From positions 1,337,070-1,401,069 of the forward strand of contig OZ253439.1 of the NCBI GenBank assembly GCA_965261035.1: a stretch of DNA of 64,000 bases, written 5' to 3'. This DNA comes from Polaribacter sp. (GTDB lineage Bacteria; Bacteroidota; Bacteroidia; Flavobacteriales; Flavobacteriaceae). Positions 28,798 through 45,826 of the stretch are shown here, in pieces. The notes beneath the pieces are model-generated. The model was not told the origin of the DNA and searched no databases. It saw only the letters and a program-made list of their open reading frames with translations. How positions within the stretch are numbered: position 1 is the first letter of the stretch; every line of letters starts with the position of its first letter. The translations under genes were made by a program, and so were the position numbers.

Positions 28798-29385
28798 ATG
28801 TTTCAGTTAGGAAAAACAATAGTTTCAGAAGATATTATAGAAAAAGATTTTGTCTGCAATCTTTCGGCTTGCAAGGGAGCGTGCTGTATAGACGGTGATG
28901 CGGGTGCTCCATTAGAAAAAGAAGAAACTAAAATTTTAGACGATATTTATCCCAAAATAAAACCTTTTTTACGTAAAGAAGGAATTGACGTAATTGAAAA
29001 AGAAGGAACTTGGACAACAAGTGATTTTGGCGAGTTAGAAGCCCCTTTAATTAATGGTTCAGATTGCGTATATGTAATTTTTGACGAAAAAAATACCGCA
29101 CTTTGTGCGATAGAAGAATCGTATAATCAAGGAGTTATAGATTGGAAAAAACCTGTTTCGTGTCATTTGTACCCAATTCGTGTGCAAGGTTATAGCGAGT
29201 TTTATGCTGTAAATTACAATAAATGGGATATTTGCGATGACGCTTGTTCTTTAGGAAAAGAGTTGCAAGTACCAGTTTATAAGTTTGTAAAACAGGCACT
29301 TATACGAAAATTTGGAGAAGATTGGTATGCCGAACTCGAAAAAGTTGCTAAAAAACATTTAGACTCAACTAAGGTTTTAGGCTAG
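28798..29385 (+). CDS. DUF3109 family protein
   Basis: FVCNLSACKGACC, KPVSCHLYPIR. Confidence 0.88.
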   Translation: MFQLGKTIVSEDIIEKDFVCNLSACKGACCIDGDAGAPLEKEETKILDDIYPKIKPFLRKEGIDVIEKEGTWTTSDFGELEAPLINGSDCVYVIFDEKNTALCAIEESYNQGVIDWKKPVSCHLYPIRVQGYSEFYAVNYNKWDICDDACSLGKELQVPVYKFVKQALIRKFGEDWYAELEKVAKKHLDSTKVLG

Positions 29386-29439: not shown

Positions 29440-30261
29440 TTGGATAATAAAACAAAAAATATCTATTGGAAAAACCGCCTTCACGAAATAATTTATGAAG
29501 CAGATACCAAAGGAGGTAAAATTTTTGATGCTGTGCTGCTTATTGCAATTTTAGCAAGCATTTTATTAGTAATGCTAGAAAGTGTAGAAAGCATCAACAA
29601 TAAATACCACACATTTTTAAATATTTCTGAATGGATTATAACTATTTTATTTTCAATAGAATACATCCTTAGATTAATCTCTATAAAGAGAGTCAGTAGC
29701 TACATTTTTAGCTTTTACGGAATTATAGATTTACTATCTACGCTTCCAAAATATTTGTCAATTATATTTGTAGGAACACACAGTTTAGTAGCTTTAAGAG
29801 CCTTGCGTTTGCTACGTGTTTTTAGAATTTTAAAACTCGCTCGTTTTATTGGAGCTTCGAATAATTTATTAAAAGCCTTAAAAGCTAGTAGAGCAAAAAT
29901 TGCTGTATTCTTATTCTTCGTTTTGATTTTATGTACCATTCTCGGAACTGTAATGTATCTGATTGAAGGTTCAAAAAACGGATTTACAAGCATACCGAGA
30001 AGCGTGTATTGGGCGATTGTAACTCTGACAACAGTGGGTTATGGAGATATTTCTCCGCAGACTCCGCAGGGTCAATTTATTGCTAGTATTATAATGATTT
30101 TAGGATATGGAATTATCGCTATTCCCACTGGAATTGTAAGCTCTGAGATAGTCAAAACAAATTCTGTTCAAACAAATACGCAATCTTGCCCTAATTGTGT
30201 TGCAGAAAATCATAACGATAAAGCGGAATTCTGTTATAATTGCGGAAGTAAACTCAATTAG
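29440..30261 (+). CDS. Ion transporter / potassium channel with C-terminal Zn ribbon
   Basis: S4 RALRLLRVFRILKL; filter TTVGYGD; CPNC...CYNCG. Confidence 0.92.
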   Translation: MDNKTKNIYWKNRLHEIIYEADTKGGKIFDAVLLIAILASILLVMLESVESINNKYHTFLNISEWIITILFSIEYILRLISIKRVSSYIFSFYGIIDLLSTLPKYLSIIFVGTHSLVALRALRLLRVFRILKLARFIGASNNLLKALKASRAKIAVFLFFVLILCTILGTVMYLIEGSKNGFTSIPRSVYWAIVTLTTVGYGDISPQTPQGQFIASIIMILGYGIIAIPTGIVSSEIVKTNSVQTNTQSCPNCVAENHNDKAEFCYNCGSKLN

Positions 30262-36243: not shown

Positions 36244-36297
36244 ATATAATTGCGGGTGCAAATTTAATTTATTTTTTACTTCTCTGCAAAGTAATAA

Positions 36298-37014
36298 TTA
36301 AATTAATTTATCTAAACTATTTACAGCAACATAACGCTCCGAAGTAAAGCCCTCCGCATATTCAACGCCAATCAATCTTCCTAAATCATTTGCCCTGTAT
36401 TTTATGCTGTCTATAAAATTCTTACTCGTAATAGGTGTTTCTGGCTCGTTACTTTTAGGGTCAAAAAACTGTGAATTATACGCATTTACCGCAGCTATTT
36501 TAGTTGATATAAATCCTGTAACATCAACTACAAAATCGGGTTCTGAATTTTTCCACTGTATATAATGATAAACTTGTTTTGGTCGCCATTTTTCTTGATT
36601 GCTCCCTCCTACTGTGGTTTCAATTTTCATAAGTCCACTTAAAAAACAAGCAGCAGAAACTAATTCACTTCCCTTTGGATGATCTATATGTCTATCGTCA
36701 ACAGCGTTACACAACACAATTTCCGGTTGATATTTACGAATTATTTTTATAATTTCTAATTGATGGTTTTTGTCATTTATAAAAAATCCATCAGCAAAAC
36801 CTAAATTTTCTCTTACAGAAAGACCTAATATTTTAGCGGATATCGCAGCTTCTTTATCACGTAAATCAGCAGACCCACGAGTGCCTAATTCTCCGCGAGT
36901 TAAATCTATAATTCCCACTTTTTTCCCAAGTGATATTTCTTTGGCAATGGTTGCCCCACAGCCTAATTCAACATCATCTGGATGCGCACCAAACGCTAAT
37001 ATATCTAATTTCAT
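36298..37014 (-). CDS. bshB1: Bacillithiol biosynthesis deacetylase (PIG-L family)
   Basis: GAHPDDVELG, TRGELGTRG, RHIDH. Confidence 0.9.
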   Translation of the reverse strand: MKLDILAFGAHPDDVELGCGATIAKEISLGKKVGIIDLTRGELGTRGSADLRDKEAAISAKILGLSVRENLGFADGFFINDKNHQLEIIKIIRKYQPEIVLCNAVDDRHIDHPKGSELVSAACFLSGLMKIETTVGGSNQEKWRPKQVYHYIQWKNSEPDFVVDVTGFISTKIAAVNAYNSQFFDPKSNEPETPITSKNFIDSIKYRANDLGRLIGVEYAEGFTSERYVAVNSLDKLI

Positions 37015-37091
37015 TTGCTTGTGATTTTTTGCAATGATTGCTCAATATCTTCAATCAAATCTTCTGTTTCTTCTATTCCTTTTTTTGACAT
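37011..37091 (-). pseudogene. Collapsed Cys/Met-metabolism PLP enzyme gene (trans-sulfuration family)
   Basis: MSKK joined in frame to GIEETEDLIEDIEQSLQKITSK*, the typical family C-terminus; stop overlaps the bshB1 ATG. Confidence 0.65.
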
Positions 37092-37244
37092 AATTTATGA
37101 TTTTTAGTTGTTAGTTGTTCCCAAATCTTATCAAACACATAATCTAAATATTGGCTATATGTTGATTTAGGCAGGTAAATATAAAAACTAAAAGTGAGAA
37201 GTTTGTTTAATCGTTAAACTGTATACATGAATATTTCAATTCTC

Positions 37245-37312
37245 ATTTTAATTCTAAACGCAAAAAAACTTCATAAGAATTTATGAAGTTTTTTTGCGTT
37301 TAGAATTAAAAT
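37245..37312. terminator. Perfect 32-bp-arm inverted repeat downstream of the OmpA-fusion gene
   Basis: Arms 37245..37276 and 37281..37312, loop gaat. Confidence 0.75.
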
Positions 37313-37324
37313 ATCTGTTACTAC

Positions 37325-38944
37325 TTATTTATCGTCAGAAACTTTTATTTCAACTCTTCTATTTTTAGTTCTACCAGCATTAGTTGTGTTAGGGGCAACT
37401 GGCTTAGCTGAACCATAACCTTTAGAGGTTAATCTACTAGTTTTAATTCCTTTAGACACCAAATATCCTTTTACAGAACTAGCTCTTTCATTAGATAGCC
37501 TTAAATTTATAGCATCTCCACCCGTATTGTCTGTATGACCTTCTATGTCAAAGTTGAATTTAGAAAATTTCTTTATAACATTAGAAATGTCATCTAACTT
37601 CTCGGTAACTCCTAATTTAAAAGAGCTTTTACCTATATTAAATAAAATAGATTTAGAATAAGAGTCTATCTTTATAGTAGCTGCTTTAATATCTGGACAT
37701 CCACCATTAGAAGCAGGTCCTTTTTCGTCTATACATTTGTCATCTTTGTCTAACACTCCGTCTCCGTCAGAATCTGGCCAAGGGCAACCTCCGTTTTCAG
37801 CTGGACCGGCTACATTAGGACATTTATCATCTTTATTTAAAGCTAAAACACCATCTTTGTCATAATCTGGGCAACCTCTGGTAGCTTTGCTTCCTTTGTC
37901 GTAAGGGCAAGCATCGTCTTTATCTGCTACTCCATCTGCGTCTGCGTCTGGACAACCATTTAAAGATGCCACACCTACTACATTAGGACAATCATCTTCA
38001 GAATCTTGAACACCATCTCCATCAGTATCTGGGCAACCTTTAAAAGCGGCTAAACCTGCAACTTCTGGACAAGCATCATCTTTATTATAAACACCGTCTC
38101 CGTCAGAATCTTTTTTACCCAAATTAAATCCAACACTAAATGAAGGTTGAACAAAAAATGAAGTTGTATAAGTATCTGAATCTAAACTAGGTAAACCCGG
38201 TCCTGGTATTTTATCACTAAAAGCATAATTAAATGATGCAGGTTTTATTCTAAAGCCTATAAAAACATCTTCAGAAAGATAATAATCTACACCTGCAACT
38301 GCCTGAATTCCAAAGGATGTTATTTCTACATGTCTTGCTCCTAAATCTGTAATTACATTATTACTATCAACTGTCGGGTCGTATAAAGACCTTCTTGCAT
38401 AGTTAAAAGGTAAAGCAATCCCTAAATATGGGAACATTCTTTTGCTTCCTGTGTTAAAAGTCCATTGACCACCCAATGTAAGGTTTATATCAATTCTTTC
38501 GTCAGCAACTACGGACTTGTATCCCGGTATTATTGTTTTTCCACCAGTAGTTACTGCTGGTATAGATAAATGTTCTGGAGTATTTCTTAAAATTGTTCCA
38601 CCAGATAGTGTTAAAGCAATTTTATCAGAAACATAATATCTACCTTCAGCACCAACCATATTTATAATACTGTTGTCGTTTGAGTTAATATCATTCGCAA
38701 AAGGAGCAGAACCATTAACTGGAGTACCGGTAGCACCGAACGAAGCGGGTGCAGCCAAACCAGTATTACTATAAGCTCCTCTTCCAAAAATTATTGCAGC
38801 CGTATAATCTCCCTTTTTTGGAGCATACGTTTTCTTTGAAGAACTACTGCTTTTTGCTTTTTGTTTGGAATCTTTATCTTGTCCGTACATTCCTGTTCCC
38901 AGTGAAATGGATAAAATAAAAATAAAAATTATATATTTTTTCAT
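37325..38944 (-). CDS. BT1926-like outer-membrane beta-barrel fused to five thrombospondin type-3 repeats and an OmpA C-terminal domain
   Basis: APKKGDYT, MVGAEG, IPGYKSVVAD, AGVDY, PGLPSLDSD, QPSFSVGF; five DxDxDG..D.CP repeats; IEGHTD, NLRLSNERA, NRRVE. Confidence 0.8.
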   Translation of the reverse strand: MKKYIIFIFILSISLGTGMYGQDKDSKQKAKSSSSSKKTYAPKKGDYTAAIIFGRGAYSNTGLAAPASFGATGTPVNGSAPFANDINSNDNSIINMVGAEGRYYVSDKIALTLSGGTILRNTPEHLSIPAVTTGGKTIIPGYKSVVADERIDINLTLGGQWTFNTGSKRMFPYLGIALPFNYARRSLYDPTVDSNNVITDLGARHVEITSFGIQAVAGVDYYLSEDVFIGFRIKPASFNYAFSDKIPGPGLPSLDSDTYTTSFFVQPSFSVGFNLGKKDSDGDGVYNKDDACPEVAGLAAFKGCPDTDGDGVQDSEDDCPNVVGVASLNGCPDADADGVADKDDACPYDKGSKATRGCPDYDKDGVLALNKDDKCPNVAGPAENGGCPWPDSDGDGVLDKDDKCIDEKGPASNGGCPDIKAATIKIDSYSKSILFNIGKSSFKLGVTEKLDDISNVIKKFSKFNFDIEGHTDNTGGDAINLRLSNERASSVKGYLVSKGIKTSRLTSKGYGSAKPVAPNTTNAGRTKNRRVEIKVSDDK

Positions 38945-38978
38945 ATTGTTTAGTTCTTTAAGAGTTAAATTTTGTTTT

Positions 38979-39016
38979 AAAAGGGACTGAAGAGAACTTT
39001 ATTTATCTTCAGCCCC
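38979..39016 (-). terminator. Stem-loop with U tail between the large lipoprotein gene and the barrel gene
   Basis: ggggctgaaga...tcttcagtccc-tttt on the minus strand. Confidence 0.65.
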
Positions 39017-39049
39017 ATTAATAATCTTTAATATTTCCTAAAGAAAGTA

Positions 39050-41917
39050 TTATGCTTTTGTTGCTGCATCTAAAGCAGCAACAGCTAAGGCTTTATACTT
39101 ATCTGCAAGACCAATAAGCTTTATTATTTCAGCATCCATAACTTTTAACTCTTGTTTAAGTACCCATATAAGCTCTGTCATTGCAACTATATTAATCTTA
39201 CCGTTAAGAACAGCTTTTTTTCCATTTACTAGATTGCTAGTTGCTGTTACAAGATTTTGCTCAGCAGCATCTACATCTGCTTGTAAATTTCTGGCAGGAA
39301 TAGTTATTAACCTAGATGCGTTAAGATATTCAGTCTTAATAATTCTCAAAGATATTCTTTTCGCTATTAAGAGGCTCTTCTTATACTCAAGGGCTTCAAT
39401 CTCAGCCTCAATTACGTTAATACTAGATACTAACTCACTAACCCCTTCTACATTTGAAGCCGATTCTATCTCTTTCTCTAAAGCTGTAAGTTTAGCAGTA
39501 TTACCAGCTATTTTAGCAGCAAGTGTAGCGATGTCAATACCTGATAATTTAATATCAAGTTCTATCTTTTCTTTTGTTCGGAAATTAGCTTTAGCAGCTT
39601 TAGCAGCATTTACAGCAGAATTACTTACAGCATTTTTTTTAGTTGTTATCATTGCTTTAGATGTCTTTAAAATACTATCTTTATCAACTGTATCTGATGT
39701 TTTAATCCCAATTACTTTCAGTGCATTGATAAAAGCAGTTTCTTTAGCTTTTAGAGTAACTCCTTTATTGTCAACAAGTAATCCGTCAAATTTATTAACT
39801 TTAGCTCTAAGTTTTTCCTCAGTAGCACTACGATCAGCTAATGACGCTTTTGCTTTGTTTAATTCAGTAATAGCTGCATCTAATTCTACAACAGCTACAT
39901 TAAATCTAGTAACATTCAACTCATCAGGAGTAGGGTCTCTATCATCAGCTTCAACATTATAGAGTTTACCTATACTACCAAGATTCGTTAAAGAAGTAGC
40001 AGCCTCAATGGATCCAAAATCAGCTACTATATCACCAAGTGTAAACTTGACAGCAAGAACTGTTGGGTTTATCGTTGCAGGAGTCTTAATAGGGAAGTCA
40101 GGACTTGCTGCGGTTTTGTCAAAAAAGAATTGCTCTGTTTCAAATGTTACTTTCTTCTTTCTTACACCATCAACAAGAGGGAAAGTTACATCTTTAATTT
40201 TTCTATATGTAACTTTTACAGCGTCAGCGCCAGTGCCTTCCATAGTGGCGTCAGTAATATTACCCGTCACACCATCAGGACCTGCAAAAACAGAAGGACC
40301 TGCAGGCTCAGCATCATAGATCTTTTTTAACGTGTCATGCTTTTTTCGGGCATCTGCTTCAGTCTTTCTTATACCTTCTATATTAATTCTAGCTGCTATA
40401 TGAGTTTTTAGTGCGTTAGTAGCATCCTCTAAACTATCTAACAATCCGCCAACATCCTCTTTTAAAGCATTATACGCCTTTCTTTTAGCTTCAGCAGTAT
40501 CATGATTTCCTTTTTTGGTGGCAACAGCAGCTTTTTCTTTGGTAATTTTAGCATCTAATTTACCTAACTCTGCATCATAGTCTGCTAAAGTTGTACTATC
40601 AGTCTTTACAGACTTTTTTTTGCTATTGTATAAAGCTGAGTCTGTCTTAATAAGACCAGCCAATCTATCATACTTTGTACGTAAAGCATCAGTTTCAGTT
40701 AATTTATTTAACTTTTCTACTTCAATAGATTTCGTGTTTTCCTTTGACCCTATATTTATTTCCTCTAAATGCACCTTTATTCCAACTTGTACTATACTGT
40801 CGTCGTATTCTTTAACACGTGCATCAAATTCTGCTTTTTGAGTAACAACTTCGTCAGTTTCATGAGCAACTTTAGCAGCTTTAGCAACTTGTACTCCAAC
40901 TTCTGCAGCTGCTTTTAAACCTTTTAGCAGAACTAAGGAAGCTTCAGCTACAGCTGAATCTATTTTACCCTCAGCTAACATTCTTGATTGCTCAGCTAAC
41001 ATTTCTGCTCTTACTTTTCTCGTAACCAATTTGGAAGCAGCCACTTTTCTAACAGCTATGTACTGATCAACTAGACCCTCTGCTACTGCAAAACCAGCTG
41101 CTCTAAGATCATCTGCGTGTAGCTGTTGAGCTTCTAGCAATTCAAATTCTGCTCTTGCTACATTAATAGCCGTTTGAGCGAGTACATCTGCAGCATTTGC
41201 CGCCCGATTTGCAGCATTTGCTTTCTCAAGTTCAGCCTTTGCCTTCTCAAGGTCAGCCTCCGCTCTTACTTTTGCTGCTGCAGCTTCTGCGGCTGTCATA
41301 TTACTGGCAGTTTCAGAAACTATCCTTGCAATCTCCGCTTCTGCTTTATTTACTGCAACTTCTGCGGCTGCTATATTACTGGCAGTTTCAGCAAGTATCC
41401 TTGCAACTTCCGCTCTTATTTTTTCTGCTGCAGCTATTGCGGCTGCTGCATCACTGCTAGTTTTAGAAATTATCCCTGCAACCTCTGCTCTTACTTTTTC
41501 TGCTGCAGCTATTGCGGCTGCTGCATTACTGGCAGTTTCAGCAAGTATCCTTGCAACCTCCGCTCTTACTTTTGCTGCTGCAACCTCTGCGGCTGTAGCA
41601 TTACTAGAAGTTTCAGAAGCTATCCTTGCAGCATGTGCTTTCTGAACTTCGGCATCTGCCGCTCTAAGATCGGCTTCCGCCTTTTTAAGAATGGCTTCTG
41701 CCCCTTTAAGAGCGGCTTCCGCCGCTTTAAGAGTAGCCTCTGCTTGATTTACCGTAACTTGACTAGCAAGAAGGTCAGCTTGACCTTGGTAAATCTTTTT
41801 AATTTCTGGTGAAACTTCGCTATCTATACAAGATACAAAGCTACCACCAAAAATGATAGCTACTAATAGTGCTACCAAAAATCTGTTCATTTTGTTCATT
41901 TTGTTCATTTTGTTCAT
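39050..41917 (-). CDS. 955-aa Ala-rich coiled-coil surface lipoprotein (BT1927 S-layer-like)
   Basis: Lipobox FVSC then IDSEVSP; long heptad helices around a central non-helical domain; directly upstream of a BT1926-like barrel gene. Confidence 0.75.
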   Translation of the reverse strand: MNKMNKMNKMNRFLVALLVAIIFGGSFVSCIDSEVSPEIKKIYQGQADLLASQVTVNQAEATLKAAEAALKGAEAILKKAEADLRAADAEVQKAHAARIASETSSNATAAEVAAAKVRAEVARILAETASNAAAAIAAAEKVRAEVAGIISKTSSDAAAAIAAAEKIRAEVARILAETASNIAAAEVAVNKAEAEIARIVSETASNMTAAEAAAAKVRAEADLEKAKAELEKANAANRAANAADVLAQTAINVARAEFELLEAQQLHADDLRAAGFAVAEGLVDQYIAVRKVAASKLVTRKVRAEMLAEQSRMLAEGKIDSAVAEASLVLLKGLKAAAEVGVQVAKAAKVAHETDEVVTQKAEFDARVKEYDDSIVQVGIKVHLEEINIGSKENTKSIEVEKLNKLTETDALRTKYDRLAGLIKTDSALYNSKKKSVKTDSTTLADYDAELGKLDAKITKEKAAVATKKGNHDTAEAKRKAYNALKEDVGGLLDSLEDATNALKTHIAARINIEGIRKTEADARKKHDTLKKIYDAEPAGPSVFAGPDGVTGNITDATMEGTGADAVKVTYRKIKDVTFPLVDGVRKKKVTFETEQFFFDKTAASPDFPIKTPATINPTVLAVKFTLGDIVADFGSIEAATSLTNLGSIGKLYNVEADDRDPTPDELNVTRFNVAVVELDAAITELNKAKASLADRSATEEKLRAKVNKFDGLLVDNKGVTLKAKETAFINALKVIGIKTSDTVDKDSILKTSKAMITTKKNAVSNSAVNAAKAAKANFRTKEKIELDIKLSGIDIATLAAKIAGNTAKLTALEKEIESASNVEGVSELVSSINVIEAEIEALEYKKSLLIAKRISLRIIKTEYLNASRLITIPARNLQADVDAAEQNLVTATSNLVNGKKAVLNGKINIVAMTELIWVLKQELKVMDAEIIKLIGLADKYKALAVAALDAATKA
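41255..41629 (-). repeat. Five tandem 75-bp (25-aa) repeats
   Basis: Units start at 41629, 41554, 41479, 41404, 41329; consensus ARILAETASNAAAAxAAAEKVRAEV. Confidence 0.9.
41882..41917 (-). repeat. 9-bp tandem repeat at the start codon, (ATGAACAAA)3 ATGAACAGA
   Basis: Encodes MNKMNKMNKMNR. Confidence 0.92.
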
Positions 41918-41978
41918 TTTGTTACTATTTAATTAATGTTTAATATTCTTTTAGTTATAATCCTATAAACTATCGGGA

Positions 41979-41986
41979 CAAAACTA
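41979..41986 (-). promoter_or_regulatory. -7 element TAGTTTTG for the lipoprotein/barrel locus
   Basis: Consensus match about 60 nt upstream of the ATG. Confidence 0.6.
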
Positions 41987-44642: not shown

Positions 44643-44671
44643 CTCTCCTTCTTTTTTATCTTGCTTATTAT

Positions 44672-44813
44672 TTTCTTTTTCTGCAAGGTTTTTGAAACCT
44701 TGCAAATATTTATTTTACTTTCTTAGGAGCAATATACATAATCATACGTTTACCTTCTAACTTTGGTAATTGCTCAACTTTTCCGTATTCTTCTAATTCT
44801 TGGGCTAATCTCA
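44672..44813. repeat. 142-bp direct repeat (second copy of the infC 3' end and downstream hairpin)
   Basis: Identical to 45228..45369 except for the 3-nt hairpin loop. Confidence 0.95.
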
Positions 44814-44814
44814 T
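44710..44814 (-). pseudogene. Duplicated infC 3' fragment (34-aa ORF)
   Basis: [34 protein letters not shown]. Confidence 0.85.
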
Positions 44815-44853
44815 AAAAAGATTAGATTTTTTTTTGACACATAATTTTTGTTA

Positions 44854-45211: not shown

Positions 45212-45227
45212 AACATAACTTGTTTAC

Positions 45228-45369
45228 TTTCTTTTTCTGCAAGGTTTCAAAAACCTTGCAAATATTTATTTTACTTTCTTAGGAGCAATATACATAATCA
45301 TACGTTTACCTTCTAACTTTGGTAATTGCTCAACTTTTCCGTATTCTTCTAATTCTTGGGCTAATCTCA
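45228..45369. repeat. 142-bp direct repeat (copy overlapping the intact infC 3' end)
   Basis: Offset 556 bp from the other copy. Confidence 0.95.
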
Positions 45370-45826
45370 ATAATAGAATTTGCCCCTGTTCTTTAAAAAT
45401 TATAGACCTTCCTTTAAAAAACACAAATGCTTTTAGCTTAGCACCGTCTTTCAAAAACTTAACAGCATGTTTCTTCTTAAATTCATAATCGTGTTCATCT
45501 GTTTGAGGTCCAAAACGAATCTCCTTAACAGTAACTTTTGTAGCTTTAGATTTTAAAACCTTATCACGTTTCTTCTGTTCGTATAAAAATTTCTTATAAT
45601 CAATAATTTTGCAAACAGGAGGAACCGCCTTTGGAGATATTTCTACCAAATCTAATTCTTGCTCGTTAGCTATTTGTCGAGCTTTTTCTATTGGATAAAC
45701 TCCAACTTCAACATTATCGCCTACCAAACGCACTTTATCAACAAATTTAATCCTATGATTAATTCTGTGTAAATCTTCCTTGATTACTCTTAAAGGTCTT
45801 CTCGACCTGCTTCTTCTAATTGCTAT
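45266..45826 (-). CDS. infC: Translation initiation factor IF-3 (non-AUG start)
   Basis: Frame open upstream of the track start ([23 protein letters not shown]); ATA at 45826 or ATT at 45820; no in-frame ATG. Confidence 0.93.

Follow-up and report, generated by a model that had tools for sequence, protein, structure and literature searches.

The 64,000-nucleotide (nt) stretch of flavobacterial DNA analysed here (the window; contig OZ253439.1 of assembly GCA_965261035.1, positions 1,337,070 to 1,401,069) carries a pair of minus-strand open reading frames (ORFs), located where the first-pass annotation had placed them: one for a lipoprotein of 955 amino acids (aa; 39050..41917) and, after a spacing of 105 nt, one for a 539-aa protein that begins as an outer-membrane barrel (37325..38944). 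The host genome is complete (2.76 Mb) and holds a single such locus, with the lipoprotein gene in one copy and the barrel family PF16961 matched nowhere else genome-wide. In the reading that we favour, with a probability of roughly 0.6, the two genes make up a fixed-promoter operon that builds a variable protein coat on the outer membrane, the barrel that anchors this coat being fused to the wall-binding half of an OmpA protein. Judged by sequence, the pair is a flavobacterial, always-on and distant relative of the lipoprotein–barrel system of Bacteroides S-layers. It is set apart by an OmpA-fused anchor that replaces the housekeeping OmpA, by allelic hypervariability among co-existing strains, and by an intercistronic RNA shared across the family.

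The features of the locus are, from the promoter downstream:

41979..41986, minus strand: putative promoter -7 box TAGTTTTG of the Bacteroidota TAnnTTTG type, 62-69 nt upstream of the ATG (sequence)
41884..41923, minus strand: 9-nt tandem repeat ATGAACAAA, 4.4 copies, giving four in-frame starts (MNKMNKMNKMN; ATG AAC AAA units; repeat analysis)
39050..41917, minus strand: lipoprotein gene (955 aa), its product predicted to be a hairpin stalk of coiled coil that carries a domain at the tip (ORF, AlphaFold2, Foldseek)
41633..41830, minus strand: conserved N-terminal module from the lipidated Cys30 to about aa 95, CIDSEVSPEIKKIYQGQADLLASQ..., 99-100% identical among conspecific alleles
41257..41630, minus strand: five tandem 75-nt (25-aa) Ala-rich repeats, aa 97-221 (repeat analysis)
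39929..40309, minus strand: central non-helical tip domain, aa 537-663, with conserved G540, G552 and a YNVEADD motif (D658, D659; AlphaFold2 and family alignment)
39100..41650, minus strand: hypervariable mosaic part of the lipoprotein gene (identity in 150-nt bins, dN/dS, Logan contigs)
38945..39049, minus strand: intercistronic RNA, an outer stem (39036..39045 with 38954..38963) around a GC-rich terminator-like hairpin (38983..39016), then a T-run (folding and covariation)
38117..38944, minus strand: signal peptide and PF16961 (BT1926-type) barrel, aa 1-276 of the second protein (Pfam, BLASTP)
37685..38116, minus strand: thrombospondin type-3 (TSP3) repeats, Ca-binding and Cys-containing, aa 277-420, periplasmic (Pfam, PDB 5wtl)
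37358..37645, minus strand: OmpA C-terminal peptidoglycan-binding domain, aa 434-529 (Pfam, NCBIfam, PDB)
37252..37305, minus strand: likely operon terminator, a long hairpin then a T-run (sequence)

The two proteins and their relatives

The first-pass annotation had assigned the barrel to the BT1926 family and had named similarity to that family as the check on its proposal. This similarity is found. The barrel scores 59.3 bits against PF16961 (OmpA_like; cut-off 26.6) over aa 88-274, and in BLASTP it aligns end to end (aa 33-272) with two Bacteroidaceae barrels at 24-25% identity (E 5e-21 and 2e-19). Both are PF16961 proteins encoded directly downstream of lipoproteins that match NF053619, the 'BT1927 family outer membrane S-layer protein' model. 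PF16961 is rare: among 401 genomes of the phylum it exceeds its cut-off only in this one, and it also matches the B. thetaiotaomicron control. On these matches the barrel is classed as a member of the BT1926-type family, the link to BT1927 and BT1926 by name running through NF053619 and PF16961 and not through those two sequences.

The secreted beta-barrel of the annotation, borne out by the signal peptide and the PF16961 match, is only the first half of the protein; its TSP3-OmpA half had been missed. Pfam finds PF00691 at 70.3 bits and PF02412 at 36.3 bits, both above their cut-offs, and PDB 5wtl, a periplasmic TSP3-OmpA structure from Capnocytophaga gingivalis, matches aa 276-534 (E 5e-88). 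Standalone PF16961 proteins measure about 260-305 aa, and at 539 aa this protein is not one of them. The two halves meet precisely where the last barrel strand ends, between SVGFNLG and KKDSDGDGV. Only two other fused barrels were seen, one in a metagenome-assembled genome (MAG) of Urechidicola (L057) and one in a sea-ice MAG (L058). In the former (Urechidicola croceus, L057:4878-7903) the family lipoprotein upstream of the fused barrel-TSP3-OmpA gene is split over three frames, either as a pseudogene or through frameshift errors in the MAG.

The two halves of the fusion have different closest relatives. Over the barrel part (aa 1-276), identity is 60% to a Lutibacter barrel and 39% to that of Tenacibaculum piscium, while the TSP3-OmpA part is 62-66% identical to congeneric Tenacibaculum OmpA and 50-54% to the two other fused proteins. 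In all other Tenacibaculum sampled, the best match spans only aa 264-538 and belongs to a protein of 453-481 aa whose N-terminal barrel is unrelated; the gene for this canonical OmpA stands between kbl and atpD in both species inspected. Here kbl (2370910-2372115) and atpD (2494002-2495513) are 122 kb apart with no OmpA between them, which suggests that a rearrangement accompanied the loss of the canonical OmpA. The canonical OmpA barrel of the genus was not found in this genome, which has three OmpA_C genes in total, and the 539-aa protein is its only TSP3-OmpA protein. Compared with the TSP3-OmpA major outer-membrane proteins of Flavobacteriia, a class that includes the P60 type of F. psychrophilum, its C-terminal 263 residues hold the same TSP3 repeats and OmpA_C domain; however, they follow a PF16961 barrel instead of the usual barrel of the genus, and the gene stands after a giant lipoprotein gene instead of at kbl-atpD. 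Lutibacter loci are also similar in promoter context and at the end of the 5' leader. Most simply, a module of the Lutibacter type would have been acquired, its barrel would have been fused with the periplasmic half of the resident OmpA, and the barrel would then have taken the place of that OmpA, this order of events being a reconstruction.

In the Bacteroidaceae operons examined, the lipoprotein gene is followed by genes for a PF16961 barrel of 283-305 aa, for a protein of some 200 aa (in one case DUF4369) and for an OmpA_C protein of 353-355 aa, in this order. Since Bacteroides operons thus encode a separate OmpA within the same module, the fusion argues that wall anchoring may belong to the working mode of such systems.

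The lipoprotein is as the annotation had described it, 955 aa long with FVSC-IDSEVSP at its lipidation site. MNKMNKMNKMN is followed by a hydrophobic region, the lipobox FVSC and then IDSEVSPE; the mature form would have 926 aa and 98 kDa, with 19.5% Ala overall and 34.5% in aa 31-250. It has no sequence match in Pfam, NCBIfam or the PDB. A word-indexed protein search returned only 3-6 relatives, the query being of low complexity, so that a full hidden Markov model (HMM) scan was needed; a scan of genome contigs for the N-terminal peptide pattern gave no relatives. Searched with a profile of the lipoprotein and the relatives found first, 1.84 billion proteins yielded 112 representatives. Members are 690-1090 aa long and conserved at both ends, with a near-invariant N-terminus (SFTSCIDNEVSP.VEAIY.AQADLIAAQ), a central signature G...G...(Y/F)NVE(A/E)DD and a C-terminus A.KYKALM.AALAS. 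Relatives open with MKKMKK-type repeats, and the family may tend to initiate translation at repeated A-rich starts instead of at a Shine-Dalgarno sequence.

The connection of this family to BT1927 comes through its margins. The weakest matches of the lipoprotein profile begin TFTSCIDNDEPAGIEELRGAKAELL, and one of them (P0099) has 450 relatives, some from Bacteroides, Phocaeicola and other Bacteroidaceae. All but one of 29 Bacteroidaceae relatives match NF053619 (best E 1.1e-50), though below the 1300-bit cut-off of this equivalog HMM; the lipoprotein itself has no NF053619 match at E <= 1. When the flavobacterial and Bacteroidaceae lipoprotein alignments are compared with hhalign, 268 N-terminal columns align with a probability of 99.6% (E 6.5e-25), and the lipobox and post-Cys motifs read TSCIDNEVSP and TSCIDNDEPAG, respectively. 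Conservation within the flavobacterial family is highest in the module that runs from Cys30 to about aa 95, which also forms the core of this hhalign match; we propose that it may be a docking or export segment. We therefore class the lipoprotein as distantly related to the BT1927 family but outside NF053619. Of the BT1927-type lipoprotein in the annotation, then, the N-terminal third stands, whereas similarity over the rest is undetectable.

BT1927 is described as a 100-kDa surface lipoprotein and BT1926 as its putative 8-stranded anchor (PMC12578637), for which the model is a radial oligomer (PMC12228718). Surface exposure has been shown for BT1927, in which conservation is much stronger at the N-terminus than elsewhere (PMC4611039). 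In B. thetaiotaomicron, eight such loci have invertible promoters and recombinases, and the BT1927 layer confers resistance to several phages (bioRxiv 10.1101/521070). The locus studied here resembles BT1927-BT1926(-BT1925) in its mostly helical lipoprotein of about 100 kDa (at the surface by prediction here) encoded directly upstream of a PF16961 barrel, in a strongly conserved N-terminal segment before a fast-diverging remainder, and in an OmpA peptidoglycan-binding function within the module, which is a separate gene in the Bacteroidaceae operons and fused here. It differs in several respects. The tyrosine recombinase and invertible promoter are absent, there is one locus instead of eight (BT1927 and seven paralogous loci), and diversity lies between strains instead of within the repertoire of one cell. 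The central and C-terminal parts of BT1927 lipoproteins have no detectable similarity to this lipoprotein, the BT1926 barrels lack the TSP3 and OmpA_C domains fused to the barrel here, and the Bacteroidaceae intergenic gap is about 25 nt, as compared with a structured 105 nt.

Within the Flavobacteriaceae the two genes travel together. A barrel scan found 34 full-length relatives, mostly from Lutibacter, with some from Tenacibaculum, Urechidicola and other Flavobacteriaceae, and in 28 of 28 loci with recovered upstream sequence a lipoprotein of the family ends 78-95 nt before the barrel start. The module is sporadic in the genus, being present in 3 of 36 other Tenacibaculum species sampled, where the lipoprotein has about 700 aa and the barrel, of 260-278 aa, stands alone. 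The modules of Lutibacter, T. finnmarkense and T. piscium share the lipoprotein family (SFTSCIDNEVSP..AIY.AQADL, VEADD and C-terminal KYKALM.AAL), and the barrel studied here belongs to the same clade as the Lutibacter barrels (55-62% identity to them). The promoter context of the Lutibacter-type loci is alike too, and the nested intergenic RNA is common to all loci. In contrast, the barrels of those three groups are standalone (257-280 aa), and T. piscium has kept a separate canonical OmpA gene beside its module, whereas this genome is without that OmpA barrel. We found no publication on these modules of lipoprotein and standalone barrel.

Structure prediction agrees with the central domain that the annotation had placed at about aa 535-665 amid coiled coil. 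A first AlphaFold2 run on 7 sequences was too poor to use by its confidence score (mean pLDDT 48.5), and a second on 32 sequences reached a mean pLDDT of 64.5. Both predict helix over aa 37-536 and 664-954 around a strand-containing centre at about aa 537-663, with short strands within aa 569-654 in the 32-sequence model. Foldseek ranks Smc5/6, MukB, JetC, condensin and PrgA of enterococci as the top PDB matches (E 1e-6 to 1e-4; TM-scores of about 0.1), and each of these is a stalk of antiparallel coiled coil that bears a domain where it turns back distally. The hairpin fibre with a tip domain suggested at first pass is supported by this as an architecture but no further. The likeness to the PrgA and SMC hairpins (PDB 6z9l, 8i4x, 7nyx) lies in the predicted long antiparallel helical stalk and the globular domain at its turn; there is no sequence relationship (TM about 0.1), and the anchoring and the cell envelope differ.

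Strain-level variation and expression

Three conspecific metagenome contigs share the whole neighbourhood of the locus and form the comparison set. Across them the barrel is 99% and the glutaminyl-tRNA synthetase (GlnRS, from glnS) 100% identical in amino acids, while the lipoprotein is only 74%, 56% and 56% identical. At the nucleotide level, 150-nt bins give 98-100% identity in the flanks and 0-70% from about 41650 to 39100. Within that span lie islands of 90-100% identity that differ between alleles, which makes the alleles mosaic. The boundaries of divergence fall inside the lipoprotein ORF, the first 90 or so codons being identical, and the block of 25-aa repeats has shrunk to about one unit in two alleles (P0003, P0004).

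The ratio of nonsynonymous to synonymous substitution rates (dN/dS) is 0.9-2.0 in the lipoprotein gene as against 0.04-0.29 in the barrel gene and glnS, with the value of the well-aligned closest pair (L003/L004, 1.96) as the robust one, codon alignments being unreliable in the most divergent blocks. The lipoprotein gene has a dS 10-40 times as high as its flanks, which is what imported or old alleles would show. The variants also occur together: two alleles come from one sample (ERZ26693861), and in run X1 the flanks assemble as single Logan contigs at a depth of about 2650, while the lipoprotein gene is in pieces at depths of about 300, 800-1000 and 1600. These depth classes mean that at least three alleles co-exist in that run. 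Such a pattern is what would be expected of an exposed surface molecule under diversifying selection, and a periplasmic structural role is hard to reconcile with it.

Antigenic variation from silent cassettes was considered and ruled out, as the genome has no extra copies of the resident or of a foreign (P0004) allele. Separately, a weak coiled-coil match lies outside the window (G000:C1, about 677238-677492), inside a 4381-aa open frame that would encode a giant protein.

The annotation had proposed expression from a fixed promoter at 41979..41986 with no invertase beside it, and the sequences support both points. The box is a perfect TAnnTTTG, and a box of this type (mostly TAGTTTTG) stands 79-95 nt upstream of the lipoprotein start in 20 of 21 Lutibacter-type loci, in the conserved context ATTATATATGTAGTTTTG. 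The upstream region contains no GTTACn7GTAAC sites, and its inverted repeats are only weak and AT-rich, none of them of invertase type. Inspection of the neighbouring genes found no recombinase gene within about 5 kb of the pair. A fixed, non-invertible promoter is the best reading of these sequences. Phase variation through the 9-nt start repeat was likewise ruled out, because the repeat unit is in frame and can produce no frameshift switch.

Between the two genes, the stem-loop that the annotation had put at 38979..39016 is real at 38983..39016 and turns out to be the inner part of a larger structure that is conserved and covarying. The intergenic region folds with an energy of -25.8 kcal/mol (z = -5.3); its inner hairpin has an 11-bp stem followed by TTTT. 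The same nested structure occurs in 30 of 30 aligned intergenic regions. The outer stem is 8-10 bp long and near-invariant in sequence (TTCTTTAAG... / ...CTTAAAGAA), with its 3' arm ending about 10 nt before the barrel start codon, while seven of eight aligned inner-stem pairs show compensatory double changes across the 30 loci. Paired cells amount to 97.1%, compared with 88.4% in shuffles and at most 66.5% with partners slid, and none of 500 shuffles reaches the observed paired-cell percentage or covariation score. An Rfam scan finds no family for the element. It probably acts as a partial terminator or transcript-end stabiliser and occludes the barrel leader, so that more lipoprotein than barrel would be made.

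What the pair may build

We propose the following mechanism. An N-terminal segment of about 65 residues, comprising the lipid anchor and the acidic, export-signal-like motif C-I-D-S-E, would dock on the partner barrel, and the remainder of the lipoprotein would double back on itself into a stalk of antiparallel coiled coil, tipped at its far end by a small beta-rich domain. The exposed part of the lipoprotein would be swapped in blocks by recombination between strains, with dN/dS at or above 1, and such block replacement implies that diversity is held at the population level and not by an on/off switch. The anchor, a BT1926-type barrel joined to the Ca-binding TSP3 and peptidoglycan-binding domain of the housekeeping OmpA, would have taken over the place of that OmpA; with the barrel fused to a peptidoglycan-binding domain, the coat would be tied through the outer membrane to the cell wall. 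The terminator-like hairpin inside the leader-sequestering stem would lower barrel expression relative to that of the lipoprotein. Surface exposure, a lattice, docking, control of stoichiometry and protection from phages, predators or host immunity are all properties that we infer.

A bolder and tentative extension, which we think less likely than not, takes the fusion as a 'Rosetta stone'. BT1926-type barrels would generally be peptidoglycan-tethered sockets, the segment of about 65 residues a portable plug, and the distal parts swappable cassettes. With the socket in the place of the housekeeping OmpA, the coat would be an obligatory envelope component, several of its alleles kept together in one population by negative frequency-dependent selection from phages or host antibodies, and the RNA would be a device that sets the dosage of plug to socket. 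If this were true, the co-existence of coat alleles would be a population-level alternative to Bacteroides phase variation.

Several observations weigh against the variable coat. Surface exposure, the lattice and the abundance of the coat are deductions from sequence, and the caveat on codon alignment given above means that the dN/dS argument leans on one pair of alleles. None of 32 flavobacterial family members matches NF053619 directly, the Bacteroides homology is confined to the N-terminal third, and profile scores there may be raised by the Ala-rich helical composition. Confidence in the structure model is only moderate (mean pLDDT 64.5), with fold-match TM-scores of about 0.1. In two sparse RNA-like runs (X5 and X6), the lipoprotein Logan contigs have a depth of 2-6, compared with 17.8 for rplT-rpmI, so the lipoprotein transcript does not look extremely abundant there. 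Finally, the minimal surface export signal places a polar or basic residue and then a pair of acidic ones around positions +3 to +5 relative to the lipidated Cys (PMC5080379), whereas the post-Cys sequence here, C-I-D-S-E-V, has its acidic residues at +3 and +5, and the I-D-S-E motif thus lacks two adjacent ones. The Bacteroidaceae relatives of surface-exposed BT1927 have a related motif, C-I-D-N-D-E.

Among the alternatives, a fibrillar surface adhesin or antigen of M-protein type survives best, although we consider it unlikely. It would form no lattice, its hairpin stalks would project singly from the barrel, its variable tip would bind host or particle ligands, and fish immunity or choice of ligand would drive its variation instead of phages. 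Tenacibaculum includes fish pathogens, the hairpin stalk with its tip domain resembles PrgA, and 5 of 32 family members have weak NCBIfam matches to the PgrA surface-exclusion domain. A conserved anchor with a variable exposed part and a variable repeat number is, moreover, typical of variable coiled-coil surface antigens. However, the closest relatives are in free-living Lutibacter of sediment and seawater, where host immunity is implausible as the driver, the stalk varies as well as the tip, and no known adhesin domains were found in Pfam or NCBIfam. The adhesin shares its anchoring mechanism with the coat and differs from it only in supramolecular form and selective agent.

A periplasmic tether or spacer is more doubtful still. 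Here the lipoprotein would be held in the inner leaflet of the outer membrane, facing the periplasm, and its long coil would help the TSP3-OmpA domains to set or brace the spacing of that membrane from the peptidoglycan, much as an outsized Braun lipoprotein might. This would suit a partner that has a peptidoglycan-binding OmpA domain and is the only TSP3-OmpA protein of the genome, as well as a long predicted coiled coil and a post-Cys motif that is not a canonical export signal. The strain comparison is where this explanation falls behind, since 26-44% amino-acid difference and dN/dS at or above 1 between strains whose neighbouring genes are 99-100% identical would be unexpected of a spacer. 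In addition, most family members are paired with barrels that lack an OmpA domain, the module occurs in so few of the other Tenacibaculum species sampled (3/36), and its N-terminal part is homologous to Bacteroidaceae relatives of the surface-located BT1927 (PMC4611039).

That the barrel is an export pore and the lipoprotein mainly released to the medium or onto vesicles is very improbable: two-partner secretion was the first proposal for BT1927-BT1926, with BT1927 detected in culture fluid (Taketani et al., PMC4611039), and strict gene pairing is compatible with it, but at 257-305 aa standalone PF16961 barrels are small, and BT1926, for which eight strands closed into a poreless barrel are described (PMC12228718, PMC12578637), is too narrow for a 98-kDa protein; fusion to a wall-binding domain also fits an anchor better than a pore.

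If the variable coat is correct, its interest goes beyond this genome. S-layer loci of Bacteroides have been known chiefly as phase-variable shields that protect gut bacteria from phages. The same type of module is now found in marine Flavobacteriia, where the fusion of barrel and wall domain, together with the OmpA gene of the Bacteroides operons, suggests a wall-tied coat. A single fixed-promoter locus with co-existing mosaic alleles offers a tractable case for studying selection on the surface coats of marine bacteria, and the nested intercistronic RNA, having no Rfam match, is a candidate regulatory element.

Surroundings of the locus

On one side, the pair is flanked by the housekeeping genes glnS, rplT, rpmI, infC and thrS, and on the opposite side by genes for a PIG-L deacetylase, a DUF2911 protein and an enoyl-CoA hydratase. 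A below-threshold Rfam match to a miRNA at 37249..37308 reflects the same hairpin as the likely operon terminator. An empty insertion site between glnS and the PIG-L gene was sought in other Tenacibaculum, where synteny is not conserved and the comparison is uninformative. In T. piscium (L016:8830-14001) and T. finnmarkense (L017:83-5455), the lipoprotein–barrel pair adjoins a gene for an alpha-2-macroglobulin-like giant lipoprotein; this neighbour is not shared by the locus here, which has a different context.

Logan contigs from four runs include a joint that skips 905 nt (the PIG-L-type deacetylase gene, 36277-37183), with sides of only 20 nt. Runs X2-X4 have no contig over 36352-36919, though two of the compared contigs (L002 and L004) carry the PIG-L-type gene, and the skipped stretch may be an effect of filtering or assembly. 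Downstream of infC, two direct repeats of 154 bp (44668-44821 and 45224-45377; 95-96% identical) bracket an insert, and each of the three conspecific contigs shows this arrangement. The RNA-like runs X5 and X6 contain a very deep contig (depth 2051 and 73) that meets the window at just two sites of 21 nt each, 28994-29014 and 29489-29510, spaced 474 nt apart. These sites probably represent a short motif shared with an abundant RNA.

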